Notes: generated by a model not told the origin, from the sequence alone. Counted from the stretch's first letter, positions 41,215 to 64,000 are shown. The stretch: DNA of 64,000 bases from Candidatus Kapaibacterium sp. (GCA_963665665.1 OY762428.1:2400001-2464000); one strand, 5' to 3'. Program-made: numbers and translations.

Positions 41215-44200
41215 ATGACCAACATGTGCGATTTTCGACTTCCCCCTTTAAGAGGTAAATGGATATTTTCTTCCTTAATTGCCTTTTTTATTCTTTTCGG
41301 GGAATTAATTTCTGCCAATTATAATTTCTACCTGAACCAGCGCCGCCGGTTCGACCAGGTTCATGTGGAAGTTTGGTGTCGTGCCGATACTACAAGCAGG
41401 GCCAGGCTTGGTTACGGTTCGCTTGTTATCAGGTATAATTCGGATTTTCTAAGTCCCGCCGTGGATCAATCGCCTACTGCAACTGATTCAATAAATTTTG
41501 ATATTGACAGAAGCAACCCGATAGATGCCATAACATCCGGATTCAATTCTTCAAACGGATACTCCGGGCTGGGTACAAGGTCCTACGGAAACGGATATTA
41601 TTCACTTGAGCTTAACCTTAATAATATAGGAGAGGGTGGATTAACACCTTCCCAGGACGGCAGGGGAAGTTTTATCGGTAAGATAATTTTTGATATTGTT
41701 AATTCTCCGGCCGATACGAATATGACCGGCATTGAGTGGAGCAGAAGCGATACTAACCAGGCCGGAGCCATCAGGCTGTTCGACTTCGAGGGCGAAGATG
41801 TTCTTGCCAATTCTGAATTTAACGACCCCGGTGATTTCACTATTGTGGGTATTGAAGTTTTATCACCCGATCATTTCGGGCAGGTGGTACACAGAAATTA
41901 TAATTATGCATCGCTTGCGGGATGGTATGCCGAAGGTGGTTATCCGATATATTTCGAGCGTAGTGTTAATCCTTCGGAATATACTCCGCCAACAGGAAAT
42001 GCCCCTGCACTGGACGAGGACCTTGGTTACATTTTTGAGTTTTCTGTTGATGCCGGTACATCGTTTACCGAGTTCGGGCGTATTTCCGAATCGGACAGAT
42101 ATGCCAATATAGTCGGAAAGAATCTTAAATATCTTGCCGGTGAAATGTATAATCCAGCAAGAACTAATACATATATCATTACAGATTATAATGGCAGCCA
42201 GATAAACAGGCTTAATTATCGGAATCCTGTGCGTGTTATATGGGCCAAGGACCCGAATTTTAATTATCAGACAAAAACAGGAAGGATCCGGATAAGGATA
42301 CTTGACGGAGAACTTGATGACGGACTTCCGCTTAGGGAACCGGGAGATATATTTGATGTCAGCGATGAAGATTTTGTTATTGGCAAACTCTTCTACCTCC
42401 AGTTCAACGGAACAAACGAATATCTGAAAACTGCAAAAAACTATAGTAATTCCACTCAGCTTACTGTTGAAGCATGGGTTAACCTGAATGAATACAAGAC
42501 AGAAGAAGGCCTTGAGCCCGGAATTGTTGTTTCCAGCGCCGGGCCTGATGCAGCCCCGATAAACGGATCCAAAGAAGGTGCCTGGATGCTTTACCTTGAG
42601 GATGGAAAATATCCTGCTTTCAGGGTAAGAGAATTCGAAGGCCGCGGCCCGGAAGGCTATCTTGCAAAAATAATTGCATATGACGCGCTTGATACTGTCA
42701 GCGCAGATCAGAATCTGACTAAGAAATTCTCGGATAATTGGGTTCATCTCGCCGCCACGGTCAGGAACAATGTGGTAACATTATATATAAACGGTGAGAT
42801 TTCCGATCAGGTAACAAATAATCAGGATATTGATATCAGGATGCGAACAACGAATCATCCAATATGGGTTGCAGTTAATCCTACCGCCAGCCCGGACGGA
42901 CTGGTGCATCTTCCCGCAGGAATCAAAGGGGTGAAAATTTGGCGTGTTGCCATGACACAGCAGCAGGTAAGAGAACGTGTTGCCGGTGTTGTTGATCCAT
43001 CCGATGTATCCGTTTACGGCGATCTGCGCAGAGGGCTTGAGATTTATGCCCCGCTTACCGGCGACCTGAAAGATAAAGCTACCGATAATGTATATCAAAA
43101 TGCAGCTTCGGATTTTGATTTTTATTTGGATGAAGAAATTGATAACCAGGCAACAAGCTTCAGGCCGGATATGGCACACCTGAAATTAACAGCGCCACTT
43201 GAAGGTGTTGGAGTATCCAATGCCCAGGATAAAAATTTCCAGGTAAGATGGGTTTCTTATGGTGTTGGTAATATTGCAAATGCAGGTTCCAAAGATATTG
43301 AAATTGAGTACAGCCTGGACGGTGGAAATACATGGAATGCTGCAAAGAATCCGGCAAACGATCCTCTCGCCGGAAATACTGCTCCCGATGTAGAATTCGG
43401 TAACACGAGCTGGGAGCCATACCTGAACAATGATGAAGGTTTTAATCTCAGGGATATCAGCGCTTCCGATAAAGATCTGTATTTAAGGATCAGGGGGCGC
43501 GAGGACAACGGACAATTTGAAATAAATGATATTGAAGGGCCTTTCAGAACCGGATTATATTTTTCGATTAAAAAGACTGAAGGCTCGATTCTTTACATGA
43601 AGCCTTCCTTCGGTATGAATATCAGTGGAAATACCGCATATATCGAGGCATGGATAAGGCCTTACCGCTTCCCGACTACCACGGAACAGTTTTTTCCGAT
43701 AGTATGCAAAATGGATACTGTTACAGGAGCAGAACATTACTCGCTTCTGCTTCTTGAAGACGGCAGGCTTCGTTTCAGGCTGATGGATGAAAACGGCAAC
43801 GTGAAATATGCCGACAGCGATCCGGAATATCCCGTGGTTGCGCCGAACTCCATTTCTGTTGATTCCGCCTGGACTCATGTAGGGGTTTATGTATTTCTGA
43901 ATAATGGCAATGGCCCGAGCGAAGTAAGATTTTTTGTAGATGGTATTCCGCAAAGAGATGATTCCCTGTCGGCTCAGCTTGGAGATGACCTTGTTCTGAA
44001 TACCCTGAACGAATACCCCGTGTATTTTGGATATCATTCATCGGATGGAATTTCAACCGGTTTTGTCGGAGAAATCAGAGAACTCAGATTCTGGAGCGGT
44101 GCTCCTAATTCCGAATTTCCTTCGGGACAGGAACCGACACCCATGAGTCTTTTCATTCAGGGTGCACAGTCTGTTCGTGCCGGAGAGCTTGAAGCAGGAT

Positions 44201-47200
44201 TTAAATCAAACCTCTATCTCTGGTATTCCTTCAACGGAGGCTCTTTTGTTAATAATGGCTATTTGCGTTCGCTGGCATCATCAACGAATAATGCGATAAT
44301 TGCCCGTTACTATGGCGAACCCATTTCATATATCCCGACGAAACCATATATTAAACTTGTTGAACCGGAATTTCGCCAGCAGGTTACAAATTCAAATAAA
44401 AATGTTCGTGTACGCTGGGTTGGTTTTGATTATGACAAAACAGAATTTTATTCAGGAAAATCCGGGCAGCCTCCTTCCGTTGAATTTTCAATACAGGGCG
44501 GCGGCGGAAATATTATCCAGCCTTATCAGTTTGTTGCGGGCGGATATTGGTCCGGCAACAGGATTAATGCACTGACTTTCCCGGATGATGACAAATATAT
44601 ATTTAAAGGAATTGGCGATGATGTTATAATTGCCGGTAAAATGGATGCCTCGGTTGCCGATCCCGATGATAATGACGACGGACAATTCAATGACCAGGGG
44701 CCTCTTGCTGCGTCTCTGACAAATGCAAGATTGCGCCTGACCGGGCAATACACTATTTACGGAACAACAAGAAAGCTTACCAGCGAAGGCCCTCTGTTTA
44801 CTGTAATGCCATCAAGCAATTTCACGATCAGGGCATTGCTTGAGGGATTCCACGACGGTGAATATACCGGCAGGCAGATCAGGGATATCGGAAAGTCTTA
44901 TGATGAGGGCGGCCTGAGGATATGGCTGTACAGGGATAATTCCGGAGCTCCGGGCGAGCTTGTTGATTCAGCCGATTCCAAAGAAGGATATGAAAATCGT
45001 ATGCCTGAGGACAGGGCAAGAAATACTAATAATTTTGCCAATGTAAACTTTATATTTCCCGATCTGACAGACGGCAGCTACTGGGTTGTGGTAGATCATT
45101 TAAACCATCTGCCGGTTATGTCTCGTTTTGCTGCCCCGTTTATCTACGAGGGCGATGTTCATAATACCTGGGCAATAGAATCGGGATGGGACTTCCAGGC
45201 ATGGAACGGAGAGGAAGACAATGTACTTCCCGCTGCCGCGGCCAATCCTTATACAAATGGATACTTTACAGCTTACGGCCCGGCAGTAACGGATATTAAC
45301 GATCCGCTCTATTCAAATTCAGGACTAATATTTAACGAGGGTATGGGCGGCGGTAAGAACCGATCCTTACCGGCACTGACCGGGGGGGATGTTGACGGTA
45401 ACGGTCAGATTGACGCCGCCGACCGTGTCCGCGTCAGACTTAATGATGGAACAGGAACTATTAGCTCGGATGTTACGGGCGACGGCGTGGTTAATGCTGA
45501 CGACCGTACAGTAACTGACAGGAATTTCGGAAAAATTTCCTCGATAAAGGAAGTTGAATTTGATGGTGGTATTATTCCCGTGCCGAATGACAATTATGTC
45601 AATGACCCGTTTTCATCAATTTCTGAAGTAAATCCGGGGCTTAGTACAAAATTCAACGAAGCCGCGAAAAAAGTAAATTATTCAATACCGGTGAAATTTA
45701 AAGACAGAACTCAGGCGGTATTTGATTTTGACCTTACTGCCGAGGCCCTGAAAAATGGAAATACAATTGAACTATCATTATATATAAAGAACAATGCAGA
45801 TACTTTTGCCCTGGCAAATTGTACTTTCGCAGTCAGCTACAACTCTTCGGTTCTGAAATATAAAGACCTGAAGGGTGAGGAAAATGTTATTTTCAGCGAC
45901 GATGCCGTTCATGGTTATTCAAGGATAAGGTCGGCTCCGGAAGAAGGAGCATCGAACCCTATACCTGATGTCAGGACTATTGAAGTGGACTATGATGCAT
46001 TTTCCAATCCCGGTGGTTTGAATGTACCCTGGGAAAAAACTTTCCTCGGAACCCTGGTTTTTGAAATCACAAACGAGCAGGCTGCTGTGTCATTTGGCTG
46101 GCATTCCAGCACTTCAATCCACAGCGTGGCTCAGGGCGTGATGACAGATTACGCTGATATGCAGGATATTGAACCTATTCTGCTTTACAATGCTGCCGTG
46201 GTAGTTCCGAACGGAGGCGAAAGTTACGCTCCGGGCAAACAGGTTGACGTAAGCTGGAGCGGCGAGGGAACTGCAAATGTTATTCTGGAATATTCCACTA
46301 ACGGCGGTTTCAACTGGTTCGACCTTACGGAAAATCCGGTTCCGGTTAACCAGAATACTTATGTATGGACAACACCTTCAACTGCATCATCCGAATGCTT
46401 AGTCAGGATTCTTGACAGCGAGACCGGCAAGGAAGTTGACCGCAGCGATGATGAGTTTTCCATCATGCCCAACTTTGCACAGATCATACGGCCTTCATCG
46501 GGCGATCCGATTTACCAGGGCGGTGCAAGCGATTATATTCGCTGGGTAACTCAGGGCTATACACGCGTAAGGTTTGAATTTTCGGAAGATGCAGGAGCAA
46601 GCTGGAAATCCGTATCCGGCAGGGTGGAGGCCAAAGAAGGCATGTATACCTGGAAACTTCCCAACGTTACCACCAAGACAGCATTGATCAGAATGATTGA
46701 TTACGAGACCGACGAGGTTATAGCCAGTTCCGGCGTATTTAAAATATTGAACGGCAGCCTTAGCTTCCGTGAGCCACGTGCCGGCGATGAATATAAACTT
46801 GGCAGGGTAAGGCGAATTCGCTGGATAGCCGAGGAACTTGATGAATTTGACCTGGATATAAGTTATAACGGCGGCGATAGCTGGGAGCGTCTTCAGTCAT
46901 CCGTGGATGCCATTCGCGGCTATATGGACTGGACAGTCGAGGGTGAGGAAACCACCAAAGCTATGCTGAGGGCTTTATGGAATGGCGACGCTGTTATGGA
47001 ATACGACCGCTCGCCTTTATTCAGTATAGTTCCGGATCCGGGTTTTGTATATGACAAACTGCCGGCCGGCTGCTCGGTATCCGAAACCTATCCGAACCCG
47101 GCAGGAGCTAAAGTTTATATTGATATTAAAGTTAACGAGACAGAAAAAATTGATATTCAGATAAAAGATATTGCCGGCAGGACGATACTCAGGCCGGCGC

Positions 47201-47328
47201 CGCGCACCATTATTCCCGGCGAGGCTAAACTTGAAATTGACCTGAGCGGCCTTGTGCCCGGCAGGTATTTTATTACTCTCAGTTCCGGGCGTATCAGGGC
47301 TGCGAGAGCAATAGAAATTGTACGTTGA
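41215..47328 (+). CDS. Giant T9SS protein: cohesin-like, 2 LamG, dockerin-like, cohesin-like, 3 Ig-like, type-A CTD (paralog A)
   Basis: Signal peptide; TVEAWV...WVHLAAT and EAWIRP...WTHVG LamG motifs; DVDGNGQIDAAD...DVTGDGVVNADD; PNGGE/EYSTNGG Ig repeats; YPNPA...PGRYF...IEIVR. Confidence 0.85.
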   Translation: MTNMCDFRLPPLRGKWIFSSLIAFFILFGELISANYNFYLNQRRRFDQVHVEVWCRADTTSRARLGYGSLVIRYNSDFLSPAVDQSPTATDSINFDIDRSNPIDAITSGFNSSNGYSGLGTRSYGNGYYSLELNLNNIGEGGLTPSQDGRGSFIGKIIFDIVNSPADTNMTGIEWSRSDTNQAGAIRLFDFEGEDVLANSEFNDPGDFTIVGIEVLSPDHFGQVVHRNYNYASLAGWYAEGGYPIYFERSVNPSEYTPPTGNAPALDEDLGYIFEFSVDAGTSFTEFGRISESDRYANIVGKNLKYLAGEMYNPARTNTYIITDYNGSQINRLNYRNPVRVIWAKDPNFNYQTKTGRIRIRILDGELDDGLPLREPGDIFDVSDEDFVIGKLFYLQFNGTNEYLKTAKNYSNSTQLTVEAWVNLNEYKTEEGLEPGIVVSSAGPDAAPINGSKEGAWMLYLEDGKYPAFRVREFEGRGPEGYLAKIIAYDALDTVSADQNLTKKFSDNWVHLAATVRNNVVTLYINGEISDQVTNNQDIDIRMRTTNHPIWVAVNPTASPDGLVHLPAGIKGVKIWRVAMTQQQVRERVAGVVDPSDVSVYGDLRRGLEIYAPLTGDLKDKATDNVYQNAASDFDFYLDEEIDNQATSFRPDMAHLKLTAPLEGVGVSNAQDKNFQVRWVSYGVGNIANAGSKDIEIEYSLDGGNTWNAAKNPANDPLAGNTAPDVEFGNTSWEPYLNNDEGFNLRDISASDKDLYLRIRGREDNGQFEINDIEGPFRTGLYFSIKKTEGSILYMKPSFGMNISGNTAYIEAWIRPYRFPTTTEQFFPIVCKMDTVTGAEHYSLLLLEDGRLRFRLMDENGNVKYADSDPEYPVVAPNSISVDSAWTHVGVYVFLNNGNGPSEVRFFVDGIPQRDDSLSAQLGDDLVLNTLNEYPVYFGYHSSDGISTGFVGEIRELRFWSGAPNSEFPSGQEPTPMSLFIQGAQSVRAGELEAGFKSNLYLWYSFNGGSFVNNGYLRSLASSTNNAIIARYYGEPISYIPTKPYIKLVEPEFRQQVTNSNKNVRVRWVGFDYDKTEFYSGKSGQPPSVEFSIQGGGGNIIQPYQFVAGGYWSGNRINALTFPDDDKYIFKGIGDDVIIAGKMDASVADPDDNDDGQFNDQGPLAASLTNARLRLTGQYTIYGTTRKLTSEGPLFTVMPSSNFTIRALLEGFHDGEYTGRQIRDIGKSYDEGGLRIWLYRDNSGAPGELVDSADSKEGYENRMPEDRARNTNNFANVNFIFPDLTDGSYWVVVDHLNHLPVMSRFAAPFIYEGDVHNTWAIESGWDFQAWNGEEDNVLPAAAANPYTNGYFTAYGPAVTDINDPLYSNSGLIFNEGMGGGKNRSLPALTGGDVDGNGQIDAADRVRVRLNDGTGTISSDVTGDGVVNADDRTVTDRNFGKISSIKEVEFDGGIIPVPNDNYVNDPFSSISEVNPGLSTKFNEAAKKVNYSIPVKFKDRTQAVFDFDLTAEALKNGNTIELSLYIKNNADTFALANCTFAVSYNSSVLKYKDLKGEENVIFSDDAVHGYSRIRSAPEEGASNPIPDVRTIEVDYDAFSNPGGLNVPWEKTFLGTLVFEITNEQAAVSFGWHSSTSIHSVAQGVMTDYADMQDIEPILLYNAAVVVPNGGESYAPGKQVDVSWSGEGTANVILEYSTNGGFNWFDLTENPVPVNQNTYVWTTPSTASSECLVRILDSETGKEVDRSDDEFSIMPNFAQIIRPSSGDPIYQGGASDYIRWVTQGYTRVRFEFSEDAGASWKSVSGRVEAKEGMYTWKLPNVTTKTALIRMIDYETDEVIASSGVFKILNGSLSFREPRAGDEYKLGRVRRIRWIAEELDEFDLDISYNGGDSWERLQSSVDAIRGYMDWTVEGEETTKAMLRALWNGDAVMEYDRSPLFSIVPDPGFVYDKLPAGCSVSETYPNPAGAKVYIDIKVNETEKIDIQIKDIAGRTILRPAPRTIIPGEAKLEIDLSGLVPGRYFITLSSGRIRAARAIEIVR

Positions 47329-47339
47329 AATAAAATTTT

Positions 47340-47470
47340 ATTCCCCTCCTTTGGAGGGGATCAAAGGGGTGGTTTTTTATTCTTGAATTTGGTCTTTATA
47401 CAATTCTTCGCCACCCCGGCTTGCCCCGATTTATCGGGGCCCTACGGGCACCCCTCCGCCGGAGGGGAAT
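47340..47470. repeat. Inverted pair of REP-like elements of the same family as 34353-34620
   Basis: ATTCCCCTCCTTTGGAGGGGATCAAAGGGGTGGTT and CGCCACCCCGGC...CACCCCTCCGCCGGAGGGGAAT. Confidence 0.75.
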
Positions 47471-47573
47471 GACAGGAAGAATTTAACCAGTACTTTGAAA
47501 ATTGAAATAAATATGTTTATCGGAGCTTTATCCATATCATCCGAGAGAAAAAATATGGTAAAAGATATTTAAG

Positions 47574-47846
47574 ATGAGGCAAACCATTGCTCGGATGAGA
47601 CAGACCATCGCTCGGAAAGGGCAAACCATCGCTCGGAAAGGGCAGATCATCGCTCAGATGAGACAAACCATCGCTCAGATGAGACAGACCATCGCTCGGA
47701 AGAGGCAAACCATCGCTCGGAAGAGGCAAACCATCGCTCGGAAGAGGCAGATCATCGCTCGGAAAGGGCAAACCATCGCTCGGAAAGGGCAGATCATCGC
47801 TCAGATGAGACAAACCATCGCTCAGATGAGACAGACCATCGCTCGG
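47574..47846. repeat. Tandem repeat, 13 x 21 bp, open in frame on both strands
   Basis: Variants of ATGAGACAGACCATCGCTCGG / AAAGGGCAAACCATCGCTCGG / AAGAGGCAAACCATCGCTCGG; units 3-6 equal units 10-13. Confidence 0.95.
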
Positions 47847-47877
47847 AAGCATTAAATTGACAATTTTTCGAAATATA

Positions 47878-47998
47878 TGTCACTCTGAGCGCAGCGAAGA
47901 GTCCATTCTTCAGGAAAAGCAGAAGAAAGATGTATTCTTCACTTCGGAAGCCTGCCCTTGCCTGCCCCGATTTATCGGGGACGAGTCGGGGAATGACA
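47878..47998. repeat. Second REP-like family element with a nested palindrome
   Basis: TGTCACTCTGAGCGCAGCGAAGAGTC ... ATTCTTCACTTCG[insert]GAATGACA; the insert contains CCCCGATTTATCGGGG. Confidence 0.6.
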
Positions 47999-48095
47999 AG
48001 AACGGTTGACAATAAGAAAAGAGAATCGAAGAAAAATTATGAAAAATGGCGGAAAAGCAGTACAGCAGAAGCTTGCAAGCTATAAGGGCGGCCAG

Positions 48096-48122
48096 TCAGT
48101 TATTCGGTAGAAATACCGACTA
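48096..48122 (+). promoter_or_regulatory. Upstream weaker sigma-28-like promoter
   Basis: TCAG-N15-ACCGACTA, sharing the spacer core GGTAGAAAT with the 48187 site. Confidence 0.35.
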
Positions 48123-48186
48123 CAAACAGCCCAAAAAAAAGGGGTTTGTAAAGTTCCAAAGAAGAAGAAATTTTAAGCGGAAAGGC

Positions 48187-48213
48187 TAAAGTTTGGTAGA
48201 AATTAACCGATAA
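48187..48213 (+). promoter_or_regulatory. sigma-28 (FliA) promoter of the giant adhesin operon
   Basis: TAAAGTTT-N11-ACCGATAA, one mismatch from the extended consensus TAAAGTTT-N11-GCCGATAA. Confidence 0.7.
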
Positions 48214-48516
48214 ACAATTACGAGAAAGCATCCAAGCGTTGGCTTGGAAGTGTTAATTTGATAACAGGAAAACAATGATTAGTTTATACGAAATAAATAA
48301 AATATACCACAGGAAGTGCATTATTATTCAACCAATTATGGAGGATTCATGGAAAGAAACATACTCCCGACAAACCGCTCCCCCGGATAGGCAAGGGCGA
48401 AGATGCAGCGAAGGGAAATCAGCCCTTAATTCGCTGAATTTTCTTTGCTTGCACGCACACGATACGAGAAATAAAGCGATACGTAAATATTTTACAAACA
48501 TTAACAGGAAATTATC

Positions 48517-54500: not shown

Positions 54501-57500
54501 TCTCAATATTAACACAACATCTACCGTTGAGAGATATTATTATATTACATTTACAGGCGGCGCAGTAACAGGCGTTACATTTGATTATGACAATACAGAA
54601 TTGAATGGTAACACTGCTACTAACCTGTCACTATACAAGGCTTCTGCTTCAACAGCAACAAGCTGGACAGGCATCGGCGGTACTGCAAATGGCGGTACTT
54701 ATACCGGTAACATAGCAAAAACATCAGGCATAAGTGGATTAACAACAGGCGATTTTCTTGCAGCAACTTCACAGGCTGTTACAATAGCAGCACATCCTAC
54801 TGAAGGTGTTCATGAAAATAATCTTATGGCTGCTTCACCACTTATTGCAAGCGCACAGAATAAGAATATACTTGGTTTCTCGCTAACATCTACAGGTACA
54901 ACTGACTTTACCGGAATTGATATGACATTGAATATCGATCCTTCGGCAAAACTCAGCAATTTTGAACTTTATGTAGATGATGATAATGATCTCAGTTCCT
55001 ACGGAATGACGAAGATCGGAAACGTTACACAGAACGGAACTTCACTTCAGTTCACAGGATTTACACAGACTTTATCAGCAGCAACAGCAAAATACTATTT
55101 CCTCGTTGCCGATGTATCATCTGTAGTAAGTTCATCAACTCCTCAGATCTTTGCATCATTCACTCAGGATGACCTAACATTATCAGCAGGCACTGCAAAT
55201 TCAAACAATTTCCAGGGTACAGCTTATTCATTCGATCAGCTCCTGGTAACAGTTGCAACTGATAATGCACCTTCAGCAGGTTCATTAACTCAGGCATTAG
55301 CTGACCAGGCAATTTTCGGATTTAATTTAACTCCGAACCTGAACAGCCCGAATGTATCATTCACAGCTATTACTATTGACGCAGATCTTGATGGTGGAGC
55401 TCCAACTTCTGACTTCACAACATTCAAGCTCTATCGCGACAGGAATAATAATGGTGTTAAAGATGATTATGATATTCTGCTTAGCACAGTTGGCGCTATG
55501 CCTGGTAACCAGCAGATAGCATTCACAGGATTAAGCGAATCATTTAATGAAGAAATTAATTACATTGTTGTATGTACTATTATCAGTTCTGCAACTGATA
55601 ACGGAACAATACAGATGCAGATTTCTGACATTAATAATATAACTCTGACAAGTCCTGCTTTATTAGATGACGACGCTCCTTATGAAGGAAATGTAATGAC
55701 AATAGCAGCTGTTGCAGCAGCAACAAAACTCGTTATTACAGATGTTTCACCTGATATTTCATTTGCAGCAAACCAGGGATTAGCAGAGAATACACTTGTT
55801 GACGGACAATTGTTTACGGTAACAGTACAGGCACAGGATGCAAGTGGCAATCCACAGAAACTTACTGCTGCGAATAATGTTACAATTAGTAATACCGGTG
55901 CTTCATCTCTTGGTGGTACATTAACACAAGATATGAATGGCTTAAATTCATATACATTCTATGATTTAATACTTCACAACAGTGGTAAGGGCGAATCAGG
56001 TATTGTTCTATCGGCAGCAGACGTAGAAACACTAACCGATGCTACAAGTTCAGCTCTTACACTGCTTTCAAAAGAACAGACAACATCACTAAGCGGTTTG
56101 GCAATATCTGCTATTCAGCCTACTCAGGTAACAGCAAGCTGGACAAACACACTTCAAGATGAATGTATATTAGTAGTTAAAGCCGGTAGCGCACCTACTG
56201 ATCCGACAGACGGAACTGAATACGGTCAGGCAACTGCTAATAACTTCTCGACTCCTAATGCCGTTAACGGTACAACTGGAACCGGAAGCGTAGTTGTTTA
56301 CAAAGGTACAGGCGAAACAGTAAACGTTACTGGCCTTACAGCTGGTACAACATATTACTTTGCGTTGTATAATTATTATGATCAGGCAAATGTAATTAAT
56401 TACAGAATAACAGCGGAACCGGAAAACAGTATAATTCTTGTATCCGAAACAACACTGGATACAGAACCAACTGTACCGGCAAGTTCAATTGCATACTCAG
56501 GTGTTACTTCCACAAGTATGAGGCTTACATGGACACGCGGTAACGGTGAAAACAATATCGTTGTTGCAAGAGCAGGTTCGGCAGCTCCAAGCCCGACAGA
56601 CGGAACAACTTATGGTTCCAGCACAGCTTATGGCGCTGCAACTGCAGCAATAAGTACTGGCTATGTAGTTTATGATGGTACTGCTAACACAGCAGAAATA
56701 ACAAACCTAATTCCGAATACAGAGTATTACTTTGCTATATATGAATATTCAGGATCAGGCGACGATATTAACTATCTGACAACAGGAGCTGTAACAGGAA
56801 ATCGCTACACATTGGTTAGCGAACCTACAGCTCAGGCTCATGATATTACTTTCAGTGAAATGACACAGGGTACTAATAACGAGTTTAAAGTAAACTGGGT
56901 TAATGGTAATGGAGATTACAGAATAGTTGTTGCAAAAGCAGCTTCCGCTATTACTGCATCTGAAACACCTGTTGACGCTTCAATCTATACATCAAATGTT
57001 GTTGCTGATCCGGTTACTTACGGTACTACTGAAGCCATTGGCGACGGTTATATTATCTATAATAACTACGGTTCAAGTAATACAAACAATTATATAACAC
57101 TCCAGGGTCTTACATACGGCCAGACTTATTACTTCAAAGTATTTGAATTTAACGGTACAGGTACAACTGCAGACGATTCTAAATTCAATTATCTGACTGA
57201 CGATGCTACGGATAATCCAAGCAGCCGCGAAGCAGATTCTTATGAAGATAATAACACACTCGCAAATGCAGTTCAGATTACTGCCGACGGTACTCTCTAC
57301 CAGGGTATTATCAGCTCTGCAACTGACGAGGACTGGCTATACTTTACTCCGGATATTGCAAATAACCTGAACAATGTAAGGATCAAACTTACATCACTTC
57401 CTAAAGACTATACAATCGAAGTTTACACTTCTGCCGGAAGATTGGTCAGGAGTTCAAAACGTACAGGCACAACTGACGAGATCATCGTTATCAACAACCT

Positions 57501-57615
57501 GCCTGTTGGCGATTACTATATCAAGATATACAGCCCGAGTGGTGACTACAGCCTTACTCCTTACAGGGTGAACGCTGTATCCAGCACTGCGGATTATAAG
57601 AGCGATACCCCGTAA
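48517..57615 (+). CDS. 3032-aa secreted adhesin-like protein: two beta-helical modules, Ig-like domains, 3 FN3-like domains, C-terminal PPC-like domain
   Basis: Signal peptide ending AWA; two SGNW...W...P caps; Thr/Gly/Ala/Asn-rich solenoid repeats; GLTAGTTYYF, LIPNTEYYF and GLTYGQTYYF; DSYEDNNT...DEDWLYF...GDYYIKI. Confidence 0.85.
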   Translation: MKKKNRLLRIGIFLAFFFALSLGTEAWAATIVTNTSGNWSDPDTWVGGALPTASDVVQIEHDLTLDGDYTCAGIVIDNDDDGDIDLKPATTGTYTLTVNGNITMASTTDKDGILYNNTNGRLNLKITGTSVITTSVAADGADGIQVNDLIISGTVTHTGAHQIDIYNNMYVNGGGSFTDGTSAGNIISFAGADSYIYNTSSASAPLVFYDLTFAAAATDAETNASFTVKGTLTTAGGSALTATAGTITFSPIANDVVIASSGTTTLNNIVIANTTYDVTSTGDISIDGSYTQSGTTGTVIHAAAGRITFSGSGTITVPTTASTPDFGFVTIDGTYVLEGSIDVLGASGTDDFNVDASDSFIANSGTVSVTSNGAQIDVEANATCTFYDLSIGTGTAAETQEITATSIITVTNDLTVAESGVAVASSDANSPAPSITMTGGTAIGSAVTLDLSGIDPADVGFFNPGNLYIGSGAFVEINTHASGWELEETTDDTLHVRGTFIVPLGNKILGDADAGDVHEFVYIYSGATLATSCIGGLFDDSNTGDAAAFDTDDGTADLTFAFEDISATNFYFYPVGTNFIQFGDDLPSQQCGNLTLAPTGSAMDATFTQGNFTVNGNFITAGTQDVVFTATTDLTLAGSNNTITHGSSGNLTFGLLSITGSYSTDDDFEVAAAGAAAFDATGGTFLATTPSNITLTGAAPQIDAGTITFYDLTIGDGTAACAAVLNNDITITGDLILGDDSGVGVLDGSLTAASQARVTFDNTASAVSPNHITVGAENDIDPCITFNNLTIAANSHIDVTTATSNILFTDGGAAAGITLGSGSSFVWSAGTLQIGSGTTAFGTTITVASDATLTLFNIDIFDIANNAITTDDSFIINGAITSTGDAAATSFTASSPSVITFGGSTTMDIAVGATGSLTFYDVIVNNTSTLGLTITTGDALTISGDLTVNSSAKFIPAADATVTFSGTDNTIVNNGTLTLGLTTFAASSDYSLTGNAKFAGGAGTLTLGANASLTQDEGAGTITIENALATIVIPATASLAVDNLTITNAAPQVTTGDLTIKGDITNSDAANAGLDGTTTFSGTENQSISGNAVDFETIIVNKASGDLKLSTDIVLNSGADGDLTLTSGNLDLNGDNTVTIPQTNSLATLSETAGAMVINSNTSATSGYIEAESGGTDGNVGGLGLSLVDVDATDIVRRYPIADLNSTRNLAGSDAVGISRYYYVQEVAGNGITSVGSVFRYDDSEINGGSEANLSLYHSDNNAAYAVVSNASVNTSTNSFTGPAGMTAITASQTDYFTFGVASGIKYSDVTTSGNWNDASSWSPTGVPTSTDLVVIKNTHTILLNTDATVSGLEIQGTGALKPAATGEYDLTCSGNVFFSNASAVLYATNGAGKLNLTMTGGNATTPKKIKLLANANFNVNDLTVTGYLEQDGAYTIDVSGDLYTSGASSFVQRVGSTNFNGTIQQTVTRDDAATLTFNNVVVADNANVTTSDSFTVLGNFTNGSAGTATFESTGGTITLSGTTAITNATSSTLEFYGLSFPANAAATTSSNFTVHGDFTLAADATFAASAGAVTFDNTATADITNNSSNSASDLTFWNVKVTTGSKVETASDFYYNGTGTSIEIQGTGSYKQTSGTTYFSASSAISNSSAGTLEFSNISIPTGVAMTTTSDFSIKGNLTVASTGTLVASNPSNITFDNTTAAINLDADDLIDFWSLTVADETELTVSDWNYDIQGNLTVLGSGSLVNSNNLVKFIEPVTKTITNNGTLEFYDLEIENNTSRVVNTTSDFTINGTLTVGVDATTGSLICSGNSTITLNYAGASPTTNGNLEGEQLALQFQNVKFTAAATPAAYYVVSGDFISNDSYHATAGEILFDGSSEQTIKGSTAPYFDEIEVDGSGVKLEVSIYIDGTIDALLLTDGDMDLNGDNIITFTATGAELDESDANTVKNTGIGSGYITTVTSGDSEPNIEASGFGLTFDAGSPTGIVVRRYHNALNINTTSTVERYYYITFTGGAVTGVTFDYDNTELNGNTATNLSLYKASASTATSWTGIGGTANGGTYTGNIAKTSGISGLTTGDFLAATSQAVTIAAHPTEGVHENNLMAASPLIASAQNKNILGFSLTSTGTTDFTGIDMTLNIDPSAKLSNFELYVDDDNDLSSYGMTKIGNVTQNGTSLQFTGFTQTLSAATAKYYFLVADVSSVVSSSTPQIFASFTQDDLTLSAGTANSNNFQGTAYSFDQLLVTVATDNAPSAGSLTQALADQAIFGFNLTPNLNSPNVSFTAITIDADLDGGAPTSDFTTFKLYRDRNNNGVKDDYDILLSTVGAMPGNQQIAFTGLSESFNEEINYIVVCTIISSATDNGTIQMQISDINNITLTSPALLDDDAPYEGNVMTIAAVAAATKLVITDVSPDISFAANQGLAENTLVDGQLFTVTVQAQDASGNPQKLTAANNVTISNTGASSLGGTLTQDMNGLNSYTFYDLILHNSGKGESGIVLSAADVETLTDATSSALTLLSKEQTTSLSGLAISAIQPTQVTASWTNTLQDECILVVKAGSAPTDPTDGTEYGQATANNFSTPNAVNGTTGTGSVVVYKGTGETVNVTGLTAGTTYYFALYNYYDQANVINYRITAEPENSIILVSETTLDTEPTVPASSIAYSGVTSTSMRLTWTRGNGENNIVVARAGSAAPSPTDGTTYGSSTAYGAATAAISTGYVVYDGTANTAEITNLIPNTEYYFAIYEYSGSGDDINYLTTGAVTGNRYTLVSEPTAQAHDITFSEMTQGTNNEFKVNWVNGNGDYRIVVAKAASAITASETPVDASIYTSNVVADPVTYGTTEAIGDGYIIYNNYGSSNTNNYITLQGLTYGQTYYFKVFEFNGTGTTADDSKFNYLTDDATDNPSSREADSYEDNNTLANAVQITADGTLYQGIISSATDEDWLYFTPDIANNLNNVRIKLTSLPKDYTIEVYTSAGRLVRSSKRTGTTDEIIVINNLPVGDYYIKIYSPSGDYSLTPYRVNAVSSTADYKSDTP

Positions 57616-57691
57616 TAATTCGACCTTGACGGACGAATGATCGCTTAAAATTGAAAATAGTATTATCATAAATATTTAAAGGAAAATAGAA

Positions 57692-60600
57692 ATGTTAAAG
57701 AAAACATCAATATCAGGCAGACGGGGAATCAAATCCATTATGACGCTCTTGATGAGTGTAACGGTGGCGTTGGTGATGTTTGCAACTGATGTGTTGGCGC
57801 AGGACTACGACTTCTCGTTGCGCCTTCGCAGGATGGGCGACAAGATCGGGGCTGAACTTTGGGTGCGCTCTTTGAACTCCTCGGCTCCTAAGCTTGGTTC
57901 CTTCACTTACTCTGTTGTTTACAACAGCAGTTACCTGCAGCCGGCAGCCACAACTTACGATGCCGGCGTTACAGACTCGGTTGACTATAATGTTAACCAG
58001 GCCGCAGACCTTCCCTACAGGGAAATCGAATCTTCCTTCGACGGAACAAACGGCTACAGCGCTATCCAGGTCGGTAACGGTTCGGGATACGCAGAACTTG
58101 AAATCACATTTACCGGGAACGCCTCATCAGAAGGCGTTCAACCCGGTACGACAGGGCGCGGTACTTTCGTGGGACGTGTTCTGTTCGATATAATTAACCA
58201 TGCCAGTCTGAGCGATTCAGATCAGACCGGTATCATCACAAACCAGACAGGTATTCCCAGCATTGTAATATATGATGCTAATGAAAACCTTCTGGATAAT
58301 ACAACTGATATTACATTTACAGATCCTTCTGCAATGAATATCAGGGGTATTACAATTCTTAATCCTAACGGCCCGAGCGAAGCTGTAAACAGGACTTCAA
58401 CATACCTTTCTCTTTCAGTTGCCGGATACCCGGTATATTTTGAAAGATCAGGACTTGTTAATCCTTCAACATACAGCTATGGTACAGACGGCCTTGCTTA
58501 TGCAATGGATTACTCACTTGACGGCGGCAGCAACTGGACAACAAACGTAATGCGCTTTGCTGAAACAACAGCACAGGCAACAGCTGCTACTTTTGACAAT
58601 CTTGCAAGCGGTGAAATCGAAACATCCAATGGTTCGGTTCCCGGCTATACAATCACAAAAGCTGACGGTAACCCGCTTACATCAAGTGGCGACGGTTACG
58701 GTGGCATTGTAAGAGTAATCTGGGAAGATAACCAGACATTTGCATACCGCTCAGAAGAAGCACGCCTTCGTATATATCAGCTTGAATCAGCAGGTTCAGG
58801 TTCTGATATTGACAATCGCGACAGGGATGATATATATGACATAAGTGACTTTGACTTTGTTCTTTCATCTCTCTTCTTCGTACAGCTTAACGGAAGTGAC
58901 GAATACTTCCGCACAACAGGAAACTACAGCAATGCTACTCAGCTTACTGTTGAAGCATGGCTTAACCTGAATGAATACGGAGCAAGTTCAAGCGAGCCCG
59001 GTATCGTTGCTTCAAGTGGCGGCCCTGCTTCTCCCGAAGAAGGCGCCTGGATTCTTTACCTGGAAGATGGTAAATATCCAGCATTCCGTGCCCGTGAATT
59101 TGACGACCGTGGTACAAATGGTTACATTGCCGAGCTGGTTTCACCCTATGCTCTGGATGTAGCTAACTCGGATATCACTCTTGGCAGTGATGCAGCAAGT
59201 GAAACTCACAGGAAAAACTGGACACATGTTGCAGCTACTGTTGCAAACAATGTTGTTACACTTTATGTTGACGGCCAGATTGTTGACCAATACACAAATA
59301 CCGCAGCTCAGGATATCAGGATGAAAACATTCAGCCATCCTATCTGGATTGGTGTTAATCCTAATATCTCGATTGATGCAGAAGATTATCTTAAAGCAGG
59401 CTTCAAAGAAGTACGCGTTTGGAGATATGCTCTTACACAGGCTGAAGTTCTTGAAAACGCAGCCGGTGTTTATGACATCATTGGAACTACATCAGCAATA
59501 AATCCGAACCCGAATGGTTCAGACATTCGTGCAGCTATCGAGATAGACTGGCCCTTCCAGGGTGCCAGAACAGATGCTGCTTCAGATGTTACTTTCCAGA
59601 ACGGTTTGAATACAATTGACTTCTACGATGGCGGTTCAATTGATAATACAGCTATCAACTATCGTCCCGACCGCGCTCATATCACACTGGTTACTCCAAC
59701 CGGCGGCGAAGGTATCAGCAATATCGAGGACAATACTTATGATATCAGCTGGATTGGTTACGGCCTTGGATCAACATCTCCGAGCTCGGAAGACCTTATG
59801 ATAGAATACAGCCGCGACGGTGGTACAAGTTGGGCAAATGCTCTTGATAACACTGCTGCACCGGCTGGCTTGCCTCTTAATGAAGTAGAAATTGAAGCAG
59901 GTTCGGCTACATGGGAACCTTATAACAGTGTTACCGAATCAGGCGCTTACCATGACCTTCAGGGTGTTGGTAACTCGATTGAAACAAACTATGTTAAGCA
60001 GGTTTATGTAAGGATCAGCGGTACATCAGGCAACGCACAGACAGATATCTATGATATGTCGGGCATGGTTTATGTTGCTCCTTACTTCTCACTGAGAAAT
60101 AATGGTGATGCTATCGTATCAATCGACGGAACCACATCACTTAACCTTTCAACAGGCGTAACATTCATGGAAGCATGGGTTCGCCCATATCGCTTCCCGA
60201 CAACAACTGAAGGTTACTTCCCGATCATCTCTAAAGTTGACAGTACATCAGGTGATGTACATTACATGCTGAAACTCAGGTCAGACGGAAGGCTTCAGTT
60301 TGATATTACACCATCAAGCGGAACTGTAGTGTCAGCTTATTCAGCTGCTGATTCACCGCTTTGGGAACCGAATGTTGAAATTCTTGACTCAGTATGGTTC
60401 CACGTTGGTGTATACGTTAATCTTGCAAGCGGAACAGGCGCAAGCGCTGTACGCTTCTATATTGACGGTGTTCCGCAGTATGTTGATTCAATTTCAACAC
60501 AGTATGGTTCGAATGTAAGCGTACCTGTTACCAATACATACCCGGCTTATATCGGTTATGAACCGTCAAACGGCGTTGATAACAGCAAAGCTTTCATCGG

Positions 60601-63600
60601 TGAAATGAGAGAAGTTCGCTTCTGGAACGGATACCCGGCAGGTATGGATATCTCCGGTACAGAGTCAATTGCCAACCCGACTGATATGACTAAGTTTATC
60701 CAGGGTGCTCTTGCAATTCATGCTGATGATCTGCTTACAACACCTACAAATTACCAGGAAAATCTTGTTGCAGCATTTACATTCGAAAATGGCGGTTATG
60801 TAAGTAATGGCTATCAGAGAACAATTGCTTCGACAAACTCAAATATTAAAGCTTATGTCCGCGGTGATATTGGTATCTCGACAGACGGTGTGGCTTATGT
60901 TCCTACAAAACCTTACCTGAAACTTGTTGAGCCTGTAACCCGCCAGGCAGTAGCTAACTCAGAAACATCACTGCGCTTGCGCTGGGCTGGTTTCGATTAT
61001 GACGAAGCCGGTTTCCGCTCAGGTTCGGCAGCCCTTTCACAGGATGCTGATATTGAGTATTCAATCCGCGGTGGCGGTGACGTTATTGTACAGCCATGGC
61101 AGGCAGTAGCAAGCACCAACTATGCCGGCGCTTATACTAATGCTCTTGGCCTTACAGCTACAGACGAATATAACTTTGCAGGCGTTACAAGCGGCATTCA
61201 GTATGGCGCTGAACTTAACGTTAGCATTAGTGATCCGGATGAAAATGATGACGGAACATACAATGATCAGGGACCGATCTACTCAGCTCTGACTAATGCA
61301 AGAATGGCTCTTACTGGAAGGGCAACTATCAACAGCCTGACACCATTTGAATATACAGATATTCTTACACTCAGGTCTGAAGGTAATCTCTTTACAGTAA
61401 CTCCTCCTTCAAACTTTACTGTACGTATGCTTCTTGAAGGTTTCCACAGCGGATCTGACGAAGATGTTACTGATATCGGTGAATCTTATGAAGGACTTGG
61501 AATTAAAATCAGGCTCTTTAATGAAATAGCAGGCGGACCGGGTACAGTAGTTGATTCAGCAGAATCAGTTTACGGTTACGATTCCGATGCTTCCGCTCTG
61601 AATGCAGGTACTGCTCCTGTTCGCGGTACAGACGGATCAATGTTCGCATCAGTACCGTTTATCTTCACTTCACTTGCAGACGGTGATTACTATGTAGTAG
61701 TTGAACACCTGAACCACCTTCCTGTAATGTCACGTTTCACAGCTAACTACCAGTTTGATGGTGATGATCTTGATACATGGACTATCGAATCTGGTTGGGA
61801 CTTCCAGTCCTGGGGCCAGAATGCAACTCCTACTTCAAGCAATTACATGAGCATGTCAACAGACGACATCTACTCAGGTAACGGCCTCTTCAGCGCCTAT
61901 GGCCAGACAGAATTAGACGAAGACGAAGTTGGCTACGATAAAACAGGCCTTATCTTTAACCAGGGTCAGGAAACTGCAACATCCAACAGGATGGCAGCTC
62001 TTGTAGCCGGTGATGTTTACCGTGACGGCCAGATCAACTCTTCAGACCGTATCAGGGTTCGTGACGATGCATCTTCAAATGTTAATCGTTCTGATGTTAC
62101 TGGCGACGGCCTTGTAAACGCTGTTGACCGTGATATCGTTGACAGGAACTTTAACAAGTTGTCTTCACTTATCGACCTTACTGTAGTTGACTATCCAACA
62201 GGCCAGGAAGTACCGATGTTCCCTTGGGTATCAGATGAGAAACCTTTGGAGCACGTATCCGACCTTAATCCTGAAAGAGCTATGGCAATGAACGCTGCTG
62301 CTAAAGAATTCATTGAAAATGGTTCGGTTCAGGCAGCACCTGTTGTAATGAGTTCTAAAAAAGGCGATCACACACTTGCAGGATTCAGTTACAGAGTATT
62401 TGCAGAACCACAGCTTAAAGACGGTAAAATGTTCGTAACAATGAGCATTGAAAACCTTGGCCAGGAATGGGCACCGGGTAACTGTACTTTTGCTCTTAAA
62501 TATGATAACAGAAATCTTGATTTCGTTGGCCTTACAGCTACAGACGAAAATCTCTTCAGCAGCGATGCAGCAGCAGGTTATTCAGCAGCTTATTCAGCAC
62601 CTGAAGAAAATGCTGACAACCCGGTTGTAAACGTCAGGACAATTGAAATTGACTATGACGGTTATTCAAGGCCGGTTGGTAACAACGTTCCTAATTCAAA
62701 AACAAAACTTGGTACACTCGTATTTGATGTAACAGGTTCAGCTGACGAATATGAATTCTCATGGCACAAACTTAGTGTAGTTCTTACAACAGACGGCCGC
62801 AACATCACTGGCGAAGGCGACTTCGTAACAGTTGAGCCGGTTAATGTTATCCGCTTTGCTTCTATCACTGTTCCTAACGGTGGTGAAGAATGGCGTTCAG
62901 GTAAGCTTTACACTGTAACATGGACAACACCAACTGTAAGCCAGATGGTTTACGTTGAATATTCAACTGACAACGGCGCAACATGGGGCAGAATTGCAGA
63001 AGAACCGGTAGACGCTATGAGCGCTATCTACAACTGGAAAACTCCGAGCATCCGTTCAACAGAATGTTTGATAAGGATTGTAAGAGTTGACGACGGTACG
63101 GAAGTTGACCGCTCAGATGCAAGCTTTGCTCTTCTTCCTGCTCCGGCAGAAATTACACGCCCGAGCGCAGCAGATCCGATCTACACTGGCGGCGCTAACG
63201 ACTTTATCCGCTGGAATGTTGACGATCCTACAAACGTTCGCTTCGAATTCTCAGACAACGGCGAAAGCGGCTGGGTTCCTGTAACAGCTACAGTAAACTC
63301 ACAGACTGGCGAAGTTGACTGGGTACTTCCTGCAGTAAATACTAAGAATGCTGTTGTTCGCATGATCAACTCTGAAACAAACGAGATCATGACACAGTCT
63401 CAGCAGTTCAAAGTTCTTGCCGGTGGCGTTACAATTACCAGCCCGCGTGCAGGTGATGTAGTTAACACTGGTGAACTTAAAGATGTTCGCTGGACTTATG
63501 ACAATGTTTCTAGGTTCGACCTTCACCTCAGCTTCGACGGTGGCGAAACATGGGTGGAAATGTCGAGAGAAGTTAACGCTCTTCCGCGTAACTACGAATG

Positions 63601-64000
63601 GACAGTTCCTACTTATAAGAACACAAAACATGCTATTATCCGTGCTCTCTGGAACAACGATCCGGACATGGAATACAGCCGTACACCGGAATTCGAGATT
63701 GCCGGCCCGGTTTCAGCCGAAGACCTCGAAAACCTTGGCTACGCATTCAACAGGCCTGTTCCTAACCCGTTCACTGATGAAACAAGGATTGAATTTACAC
63801 TTCCTAACACAGAAAATGTAACAATCACTGTATTCAGCAGCACAGGCCAGCAGGTTGCAGTACTCGCAGACAGTAAATCATTCGACGAAGGTACACACCA
63901 CGTATTCTTCCAGGCAAATGAACTCCCGGCAGGCGTATATATCGTACACCTCAGGGCAGGAACCTACAGCGAAGTACGCGAAGCAATTCTCGTTAAATAA
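57692..64000 (+). CDS. Giant T9SS protein, full-length paralog of 41215-47328 (paralog B)
   Basis: Collinear similarity (e.g. NYSNATQLTVEAWLNLNEY, EGAWILYLEDGKYPAFR, HLNHLPVMSRF); DVYRDGQINSSD...DVTGDGLVNAVD; PVPNPF...AGVYIVHL...AILVK; stop at 63998-64000. Confidence 0.88.
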   Translation: MLKKTSISGRRGIKSIMTLLMSVTVALVMFATDVLAQDYDFSLRLRRMGDKIGAELWVRSLNSSAPKLGSFTYSVVYNSSYLQPAATTYDAGVTDSVDYNVNQAADLPYREIESSFDGTNGYSAIQVGNGSGYAELEITFTGNASSEGVQPGTTGRGTFVGRVLFDIINHASLSDSDQTGIITNQTGIPSIVIYDANENLLDNTTDITFTDPSAMNIRGITILNPNGPSEAVNRTSTYLSLSVAGYPVYFERSGLVNPSTYSYGTDGLAYAMDYSLDGGSNWTTNVMRFAETTAQATAATFDNLASGEIETSNGSVPGYTITKADGNPLTSSGDGYGGIVRVIWEDNQTFAYRSEEARLRIYQLESAGSGSDIDNRDRDDIYDISDFDFVLSSLFFVQLNGSDEYFRTTGNYSNATQLTVEAWLNLNEYGASSSEPGIVASSGGPASPEEGAWILYLEDGKYPAFRAREFDDRGTNGYIAELVSPYALDVANSDITLGSDAASETHRKNWTHVAATVANNVVTLYVDGQIVDQYTNTAAQDIRMKTFSHPIWIGVNPNISIDAEDYLKAGFKEVRVWRYALTQAEVLENAAGVYDIIGTTSAINPNPNGSDIRAAIEIDWPFQGARTDAASDVTFQNGLNTIDFYDGGSIDNTAINYRPDRAHITLVTPTGGEGISNIEDNTYDISWIGYGLGSTSPSSEDLMIEYSRDGGTSWANALDNTAAPAGLPLNEVEIEAGSATWEPYNSVTESGAYHDLQGVGNSIETNYVKQVYVRISGTSGNAQTDIYDMSGMVYVAPYFSLRNNGDAIVSIDGTTSLNLSTGVTFMEAWVRPYRFPTTTEGYFPIISKVDSTSGDVHYMLKLRSDGRLQFDITPSSGTVVSAYSAADSPLWEPNVEILDSVWFHVGVYVNLASGTGASAVRFYIDGVPQYVDSISTQYGSNVSVPVTNTYPAYIGYEPSNGVDNSKAFIGEMREVRFWNGYPAGMDISGTESIANPTDMTKFIQGALAIHADDLLTTPTNYQENLVAAFTFENGGYVSNGYQRTIASTNSNIKAYVRGDIGISTDGVAYVPTKPYLKLVEPVTRQAVANSETSLRLRWAGFDYDEAGFRSGSAALSQDADIEYSIRGGGDVIVQPWQAVASTNYAGAYTNALGLTATDEYNFAGVTSGIQYGAELNVSISDPDENDDGTYNDQGPIYSALTNARMALTGRATINSLTPFEYTDILTLRSEGNLFTVTPPSNFTVRMLLEGFHSGSDEDVTDIGESYEGLGIKIRLFNEIAGGPGTVVDSAESVYGYDSDASALNAGTAPVRGTDGSMFASVPFIFTSLADGDYYVVVEHLNHLPVMSRFTANYQFDGDDLDTWTIESGWDFQSWGQNATPTSSNYMSMSTDDIYSGNGLFSAYGQTELDEDEVGYDKTGLIFNQGQETATSNRMAALVAGDVYRDGQINSSDRIRVRDDASSNVNRSDVTGDGLVNAVDRDIVDRNFNKLSSLIDLTVVDYPTGQEVPMFPWVSDEKPLEHVSDLNPERAMAMNAAAKEFIENGSVQAAPVVMSSKKGDHTLAGFSYRVFAEPQLKDGKMFVTMSIENLGQEWAPGNCTFALKYDNRNLDFVGLTATDENLFSSDAAAGYSAAYSAPEENADNPVVNVRTIEIDYDGYSRPVGNNVPNSKTKLGTLVFDVTGSADEYEFSWHKLSVVLTTDGRNITGEGDFVTVEPVNVIRFASITVPNGGEEWRSGKLYTVTWTTPTVSQMVYVEYSTDNGATWGRIAEEPVDAMSAIYNWKTPSIRSTECLIRIVRVDDGTEVDRSDASFALLPAPAEITRPSAADPIYTGGANDFIRWNVDDPTNVRFEFSDNGESGWVPVTATVNSQTGEVDWVLPAVNTKNAVVRMINSETNEIMTQSQQFKVLAGGVTITSPRAGDVVNTGELKDVRWTYDNVSRFDLHLSFDGGETWVEMSREVNALPRNYEWTVPTYKNTKHAIIRALWNNDPDMEYSRTPEFEIAGPVSAEDLENLGYAFNRPVPNPFTDETRIEFTLPNTENVTITVFSSTGQQVAVLADSKSFDEGTHHVFFQANELPAGVYIVHLRAGTYSEVREAILVK

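Follow-up and report, generated by a model that had tools for sequence, protein, structure and literature searches.

Giant paralogous proteins of Candidatus Kapaibacterium with predicted cohesin folds and a dockerin in one non-catalytic chain

Three giant genes at the end of the window

The 64,000-nt stretch of Candidatus Kapaibacterium sp. DNA analyzed here (GCA_963665665.1, OY762428.1:2400001-2464000; hereafter, the window) ends with three very large genes, the outer two of which, A and B, encode collinear paralogs that align end to end with 40% identity. A first-pass annotation had read these genes as twin proteins with cohesin-like and dockerin-like modules on either side of an adhesin, and had proposed that they form a self-assembling surface scaffold. 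As detailed below, the underlying observation is confirmed and its interpretation is partly supported.

41215-47328, plus strand: gene A, open reading frame (ORF) of 2037 aa
48517-57615, plus strand: central gene, 3032 aa; signal-peptide-like start, two G8-like beta-helix-type units, repeat region, FN3 domains, and C-terminal beta-sandwich resembling a PPC domain or a C-terminal sorting domain (CTD)
57692-64000, plus strand: gene B, ORF of 2102 aa with its stop as the last codon of the window; architecture as in A

All three proteins begin with a hydrophobic N terminus, as judged by eye. In A, the putative signal peptide is followed by a cohesin, a beta-sandwich, a LamG domain, a second beta-sandwich, a second LamG domain, a third beta-sandwich, a pre-dockerin domain, a dockerin, a tether, another cohesin, three repeats, and a type IX secretion system (T9SS) CTD, with the two cohesins of the chain about 1,300 residues apart. 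No catalytic family was matched in A or B by Pfam or NCBIfam, as already annotated, and a search of positions 40700-64000 with Rfam gave no match. The modules map as follows.

41317-41856, plus strand: A, N-terminal cohesin-fold module, aa 35-214; AlphaFold2 predicted local distance difference test (pLDDT) 93.6, Foldseek best E 5.5e-6
42406-42969, plus strand: A, first LamG domain (Laminin_G_3, PF13385), aa 398-585; Pfam E 2.9e-26
43582-44214, plus strand: A, second LamG domain, a second Laminin_G_3 stretch, aa ~790-1000; bounds approximate, from the family alignment
44800-45363, plus strand: A, family-specific pre-dockerin domain, aa 1196-1383; without Pfam match, full-length profile matches within the family only
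45364-45549, plus strand: A, dockerin with two Ca-loop/helix segments, aa 1384-1445; from alignment, Pfam, and PDB profile match
45550-45726, plus strand: A, variable tether from dockerin to second cohesin; from length variation in the family
45694-46170, plus strand: A, second cohesin-fold module, aa 1494-1652; pLDDT 93.9, Foldseek best E 4.1e-6
46186-47034, plus strand: A, three tandem Asp-box repeats of ~95 aa, aa 1658-1940; from mutual cross-matches
47089-47295, plus strand: A, T9SS type A sorting domain, aa 1959-2027; PF18962 40.8 bits, TIGR04183 32.2 bits
57803-58354, plus strand: B, N-terminal cohesin-fold module; family hidden Markov model (HMM) 184 bits, row in the N-module alignment
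61988-62173, plus strand: B, dockerin; Pfam Dockerin_1 E 7e-4, family HMM 94 bits
62357-62833, plus strand: B, second cohesin-fold module; family HMM 185 bits, row in the second-module alignment
62858-63697, plus strand: B, three tandem repeats, aa 1723-2002; from mutual cross-matches
63761-63979, plus strand: B, T9SS type A sorting domain, aa 2024-2096; PF18962 38.2 bits, TIGR04183 33.7 bits

A dockerin and two divergent cohesin folds in each chain

To characterize the modules, we cut them from 37 to 39 relatives taken from genome contigs and aligned them. Across 39 members, the duplicated Ca-loop motif resolved into the layout of a dockerin, that is, two tandem segments of ~22 residues, each comprising a Ca-binding loop of 12 residues, rich in Asp/Asn, and a subsequent helix (GDVxxDGQINAADR ... 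SDVTGDGxVNAxDR, with invariant Asp/Gly positions). Dockerin_1 (PF00404) was matched in 39/39 relatives at E≤0.1 (best E 8.4e-11), and the family dockerin profile, run against PDB sequences, matched solved dockerins at E 1.6e-6. With a mean column identity of 70%, this is the best-conserved part of the proteins among those examined. On sequence criteria, the motif of A and B classifies as a dockerin, where the first-pass annotation had placed one.

The tether that joins the dockerin to the second cohesin varies from 27 to 118 aa (median, 68.5; 170 family members), and this range would allow contact between the two modules in cis as well as in trans. Within this otherwise variable tether (A aa 1446-1504, plus relatives), one short motif is conserved, with the family consensus LSxxFNxxA.

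The two beta-sandwiches per chain that had been annotated as cohesin-like were evaluated by structure prediction. Both models of A were predicted with a pLDDT of ~94, and the PDB matches listed by Foldseek were all cohesins or cohesin-like modules, both for the N-terminal module (43 matches at E≤0.001; template modeling [TM] scores, 0.50-0.74) and for the second module (62 matches; TM 0.5-0.7). The lists were headed by cohesins of Acetivibrio cellulolyticus ScaA/ScaB and Clostridium thermocellum CipA. At the sequence level, the Pfam Cohesin family (PF00963) was matched by the second module of 19/39 relatives at E≤0.1 (best, 4.9e-6) and by the N-terminal module of 3/37 (best, 0.011), with the N-terminal copy of the window unmatched. 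The cohesin alignments on their own, when searched against PDB sequences, ranked cohesins at the top but at nonsignificant E values (0.18-0.6), which is why the comparison of folds was required. The N-terminal and second modules are homologous to each other (hhalign probability, 96.9%; E 1.9e-10), and their alignments have mean column identities of 46 to 51%. The models thus identify both beta-sandwiches as predicted cohesin folds of the nine-stranded jelly-roll type, which we call divergent because of moderate TM scores (0.5-0.74) and an identity of 8 to 16% to solved cohesins.

As for the remaining modules, the two LamG domains proposed for each protein score above the Pfam cut-off in both A and B (E 7.8e-27 for the two stretches of B). 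The three C-terminal repeats, annotated as Ig-like, were likewise recovered as tandem repeats: in A, residues 1658-1752, 1755-1845, and 1851-1940 match one another at E 1e-11 to 1e-19, with additional weak matches to Reelin_subrepeat-B and Kre9_KNH. Three further Asp-box beta-sandwich-like segments of A (aa 215-392, 655-778, and 1046-1195), as well as its pre-dockerin domain, had gone unmentioned in the first-pass annotation. Finally, the sorting domains of A and B exceed both curated cut-offs (27 bits for PF18962 and 23 bits for TIGR04183), which makes the two proteins predicted non-catalytic T9SS cargo. No genes of the T9SS machinery itself were recognized among the window ORFs scanned.

A narrow family with a fixed module order

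A word-indexed search retrieved 125 relatives, nearly all of them 1,960 to 2,340 aa long and all with generic names ("LamG-like jellyroll fold domain-containing protein"; "T9SS type A sorting domain-containing protein"). As source organisms, Candidatus Kapabacteria or Kapaibacterium were given, with Bacteroidota for two partial entries. An exhaustive search of 1.84 billion representative sequences with a profile of the pre-dockerin domain plus dockerin yielded 51 clusters at E≤1e-30; end-to-end matches were confined to proteins of ~2000 aa, at the position seen in the family, or to fragments of such proteins. The A/B family therefore appears to be narrow, with its named members all Kapabacteria, and we found no description of it in the literature listings searched. 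Full-length sequences of 39 members fell into three clades in a phylogenetic tree: A, B, and one more.

We also considered the pre-dockerin domain and dockerin as a mobile "X-dockerin" unit. This idea was rejected on the restricted placement of the end-to-end matches, and an Atlas feature search on it returned sub-threshold leads only (0.76). An A-type subgroup of 2318 to 2327 aa (L002, L003, L006, L007, L009, L011, L012, L014, and L018) carries an insertion of ~280 residues near A residue ~945, and precomputed Pfam annotation places PF07559 on several database proteins of the same length class.

For a view of genomic context, we examined 56 loci with 1.01 Mb of DNA; of the 171 stretches that matched, the scan retained the best 80. 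In every complete family ORF of the window and these loci, N-terminal cohesin, dockerin, and second cohesin follow in identical order. Family HMMs run on all six-frame ORFs of the same DNA found no match outside family members, and a motif scan for paired Ca loops picked up 16 of 4765 ORFs, all of which belong to the family. That is, there is no other dockerin-bearing gene in the 64-kb window or in the 1.01 Mb of related loci. With no other carrier of either module in this DNA, the partner of the dockerin would most simply be a cohesin of the family itself; our best guess is that the dockerin pairs with its own protein type, within a chain or between copies. The first-pass suggestion that A and B recruit other dockerin-bearing proteins finds no candidate in the same DNA.

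An alternative is that the partners are encoded elsewhere in the genome, such that the cohesins serve as ports for other dockerin proteins, the dockerin plugs into a separate cohesin anchor as in adaptor scaffoldins, or both. In cellulosomes, scaffoldins that combine cohesins with a dockerin do not bind themselves but other proteins. The pre-dockerin plus dockerin profile matched 1017 proteins at E≤0.001, and among the 150 matches listed, those from outside the family mostly cover the dockerin part, a few of them covering only positions ~83-133, in proteins of many different lengths. Moreover, the tip cohesin does not covary with the dockerin of its own chain (see below), and two reports provide precedents in related phyla (PMC8542988; bioRxiv 10.64898/2026.03.19.712371). 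Nevertheless, we consider external partners unlikely: none appeared in the window or in the 1.01 Mb of Kapabacteria DNA that surrounds family genes, the sole organism given for the ten nearest non-family matches is a Pirellulaceae metagenome-assembled genome (MAG), and the invariant complement of one dockerin and two cohesins per complete member is more simply understood as an internal partnership.

Possible covariation of the dockerin with the second cohesin

We inspected covariation between the modules in 121 nonredundant family members. Among 23,436 pairs scored by mean-field direct coupling analysis (DCA), the top one joins residue 143 of the second cohesin to dockerin column 46, which is relative position 11 of the second dockerin repeat. 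An earlier report describes positions 10 and 11 as established determinants of specificity (PMC8063739). The residue states at this pair are chemically matched: Asp is paired with His in 44 cases, Ile/Val/Leu with Leu/Ile in 37, and Thr with His/Tyr/Trp in 28. In phylogenetically independent pairs, aliphatic states co-changed in 7.7 of 9 cases and went in opposite directions in 0 (p ~0.008). Under a branch-rate-corrected null, dockerin and second cohesin ranked first of 45 domain pairs, and 5 of their top 10 residue pairs cluster, with cohesin residues 141/143 covarying with dockerin columns 46/49, i.e., positions 11/14 of repeat 2.

Taken as a whole, these data are weakly suggestive of a contact between the dockerin and the adjacent second cohesin. 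A hypergeometric co-change test (p 5e-7), initially taken as decisive, was downgraded after an all-against-all control and the branch-rate-corrected null. With both modules in one chain, covariation does not distinguish a clasp in cis from chaining between copies.

In the window itself, the covarying dockerin/cohesin pair is Asp/His in A and Val/Leu in B, which argues against cross-binding of the two paralogs here. On three other contigs with both paralogs, the two share a state (Asp/His in L004 and P0010/P0076, Thr/His in P0037/P0077), and the idea that A and B are always orthogonal was therefore rejected.

The central protein and its linkage to A and B

The central protein, which lies between the paralogs, carries neither a cohesin nor a dockerin, as judged by family HMMs and the paired-Ca-loop scan. 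Its composition suggests an adhesin. Pfam G8 matches the second of its beta-helix-type units (E 3e-5), and the protein appears to be internally duplicated (48517-52400 versus 52400-57615), with a second G8-like start at aa ~1321; most homologs are 1769 to 1845 aa long and align only to aa ~1299-3031, with one other of 3043 aa. Its C-terminal domain scores below the cut-offs for sorting domains (24.6 bits against 27 and 19.6 bits against 23).

57283-57612, plus strand: central protein, C-terminal domain; Pfam PPC in 8/8 homologs (best, 1.9e-7), Por_Secre_tail in 4/8

Ten of the 56 loci contain homologs of the central protein. Where DNA upstream of a B-type gene is visible, a central homolog always directly precedes it (8/8 loci: L004, L005, L025, L041, L045, L047, L051, and L054), with a gap of ~110 bp or less where measured and 76 bp in the window, and the central gene and B are probably co-transcribed. 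A central homolog also lies downstream of A-type genes in five loci (L003, L004, L005, L010, and L025). The predicted conservation of the three-gene arrangement holds in part: beyond the window, the complete array of A, central gene, and B recurs in L004, L005, and L025, and the central/B pair is constant where upstream DNA is visible, whereas at least 20 loci with ~10 kb visible on both sides hold a single family gene and no central homolog. The family must therefore be able to function without a nearby twin. As to gene A, a terminator-like hairpin and a spacer of 1.19 kb to the central gene make it look like its own transcription unit.

47346-47369, plus strand: terminator-like hairpin plus T run just after gene A; 3 terminator-like sites found versus 1.5 expected from shuffles

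The spacer contains a 21-bp tandem repeat (47576-47849; 13 copies, 84% match, consensus GAGGCAAACCATCGCTCGGAA) that gives rise to spurious repeat ORFs on both strands. Upstream of A, DapA-like and SpoIIE-phosphatase-like genes (38583-40768) have apparent counterparts at the A-type orthologs L001, L002, L003, and L005, namely, minus-strand ORFs of ~303-313 and 412-446 aa whose identity is assigned from size and position only.

These observations bear on the original proposal of a mixed, Ca-dependent lattice or sheath in which A and B would be cross-linked by cohesin-dockerin contacts and to which the central protein and other dockerin proteins would be recruited. Both module types do reside in each chain, the full array recurs in three further loci, and cross-binding would be possible on the three contigs on which the paralogs share their covarying state. 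Yet the window paralogs differ at that very pair, leaving a mixed lattice unsupported here; the central protein has neither module, so that its recruitment by cohesin-dockerin binding has no basis; and no other dockerin gene is found nearby. Considering, in addition, the loci with a lone family gene and the separate transcription unit predicted for A, we regard such a lattice as very unlikely.

A model of dockerin engagement within one protein type

Our best explanation, to which we give a probability of roughly 45%, is that A and B are giant non-catalytic surface proteins of Kapabacteria whose dockerin engages the second cohesin of its own protein type, with the central protein acting as an adhesion partner outside any cohesin-dockerin contact. 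In this model, the T9SS sorting domain would anchor the chain to the cell surface, which would place the second cohesin near the membrane-proximal end and the N-terminal cohesin at the far tip. The dockerin would bind the neighboring second cohesin in a Ca-dependent manner, either in cis as a clasp or on the next copy on the same surface, while ligand binding would fall to the outward-facing LamG domains and tip cohesin. The beta-helix/FN3 protein would be a probable functional partner in adhesion.

Self-assembly of A and B is plausible. In its most elaborate form, the dockerin of each T9SS-anchored chain would insert into the membrane-proximal cohesin of the next copy, the chains would daisy-chain into a Ca-dependent, enzyme-free surface array with a specificity that co-evolves per protein type, and the N-terminal cohesins and LamG domains would project from the surface, where the co-encoded beta-helix protein or partner cells could dock. 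We think it improbable that all of these elements hold together.

Several points weigh against self-pairing of the dockerin. With respect to the modules, the window copies of the dockerin (21.6 and 20.2 bits) fall slightly below the Pfam cut-off of 22.9, and the window copy of the second cohesin reaches 21.7 bits against a cut-off of 24.1. The cohesin models resemble solved cohesins moderately (TM 0.5-0.74; root mean square deviation, 4-8 Å; identity, 8-16%). Cohesins bind the dockerin on their 8-3-6-5 face, and the regions expected to form strands 5 and 6 of this canonical face contain little regular strand in the model of the second cohesin. With respect to covariation, the best corrected p value of 1.1e-4 over 9,858 pairs corresponds to 1.1 expected by chance and is nonsignificant; under a simpler null, four other domain pairs do as well as dockerin and second cohesin or better; the first LamG domain, used as a control, has a DCA outlier of similar size (z 9.3 versus 10.1); and the independent-pairs test was post hoc, as the pair had been selected in the very data set tested. 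The covariation of the N-terminal cohesin with the dockerin does not rise above controls, and self-pairing does not account for this module. Lastly, partners could be encoded outside the window and the 1.01 Mb of related loci.

Some of these points would equally fit a scenario without any cohesin-dockerin binding, in which the protein would be a long LamG adhesin, with the dockerin as no more than a Ca-binding stalk element and the cohesin folds as spacers or modules for glycan binding. The divergence of the folds, the sub-threshold Pfam scores of the window copies, and the nonsignificance of the corrected covariation are all compatible with this scenario, as are the other parts of the protein, whose succession of beta-sandwich and lectin-type domains is typical of adhesins. 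On the other hand, the dockerin is better conserved than the cohesins (70% mean column identity versus 46-51%), including surface-type Arg/Asp/Asn residues on both helices, and the strongest coupling involves a position with a known part in recognition and has matched chemistry. Such a purely structural role is therefore doubtful in our view, and we favor engagement of the dockerin by the second cohesin of the same protein type.

Few known protein connectors are as tight as cohesin-dockerin pairs, which have found wide use in synthetic biology. To our knowledge, nearly all characterized pairs come from Gram-positive cellulosomes. If dockerin and second cohesin indeed pair in the A/B family, this would extend the connector to outer membrane surface architecture in the Bacteroidota-Chlorobiota group. 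It would also provide naturally diverged candidate specificity pairs (Asp/His, aliphatic/aliphatic, and Thr/aromatic) and a way into the attachment of uncultured Kapabacteria to surfaces or to partner cells. Without such binding, the locus would simply encode two large LamG adhesins next to a beta-helix adhesin.

Other features of the window

The surrounding window encodes, among others, flagellar switch proteins, PheS, DapA, and another sorting-domain protein. The latter, a 1435-aa T9SS sorting-domain protein on the minus strand (16553-20860), combines MAM and immunoglobulin I-set/Ig_3 domains and has no cohesin or dockerin by family HMMs. The genes fliL, fliM, fliN, and fliO lie on the minus strand at 9792-12418, in the same genome that uses T9SS sorting domains. 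Between these genes and gene A, positions 29613-38434 form a likely defense and mobile island with the following genes.

29613-30113: DUF4365 protein
33141-33986, minus strand: IS3-type integrase
34784-36061: HD plus PycTM protein, Pycsar effector-like
36067-36744: radical SAM protein
36824-38434: 536-aa protein without Pfam match

Comparison with known cohesin-dockerin systems

The A/B system does not appear to be a cellulosome, since no dockerin enzymes, no carbohydrate-binding module (CBM), and no tandem cohesins were found. Specifically, neither the window nor the 1.01 Mb of related loci contained dockerin-bearing carbohydrate-active enzymes, and A and B, which carry LamG domains instead, matched no CBM family. 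The non-cellulosomal, T9SS-exported character proposed in the first-pass annotation agrees with these results and with the sorting domains. The work of Peer et al. from 2009 is said to be the standard reference for cohesin and dockerin modules outside cellulosomes.

Like the scaffoldins and adaptor scaffoldins of Clostridia, A and B are non-catalytic, use the same two module folds, unite cohesin and dockerin in one chain, and are presumably displayed on the cell surface. Unlike them, they lack nearby dockerin enzymes, CBMs, and a tandem cohesin array, having LamG domains and Asp-box sandwiches in their place, and they come from MAGs of Gram-negative bacteria labeled Kapabacteria, with a T9SS sorting domain rather than anchoring by SLH domains or sortase. 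Clostridium perfringens glycoside hydrolases (PDB 2jh2, 2w1n, and 2ozn, which are among our PDB matches) likewise use cohesin and dockerin folds outside cellulose degradation, to connect large secreted proteins. There, the modules reside on enzymes and join different proteins, whereas A and B contain no enzyme and would probably find their partner within the same protein type.

Two systems from related lineages come closer. A report on Candidatus Stygibacter (Cloacimonadota) describes a T9SS-anchored cellulosome-like system, predicted from sequence only (PMC8542988). As in A and B, a scaffoldin-like protein with cohesins and a C-terminal sorting domain is involved, in a member of the same superphylum. 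As far as described there, the Stygibacter system has tandem cohesins, CBM2/CBM3, and separate dockerin hydrolases and peptidases, whereas A and B have cohesins and dockerin in one chain and no dockerin enzymes were seen around them. In Chlorobium chlorochromatii, the N-terminal type II cohesin of one giant protein has been modeled to bind the dockerin of its giant neighbor (Cag_2037/Cag_2038; bioRxiv 10.64898/2026.03.19.712371). This non-cellulosomal pair, for which a role in cell-cell contact is proposed, shares with A and B a giant surface protein with an N-terminal cohesin, in a lineage related to Kapabacteria. In the same account, the Chlorobium dockerin resides on a separate neighboring giant Ig-repeat protein, and type I secretion with an RTX domain is used. 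A and B differ in having both modules in one chain, a T9SS sorting domain, and a giant neighbor with neither module. The present family thus stands apart from these systems by uniting two cohesins, a dockerin, and LamG lectin domains in a single chain free of enzymes, in an architecture fixed throughout the family and next to a giant neighbor that carries neither module.

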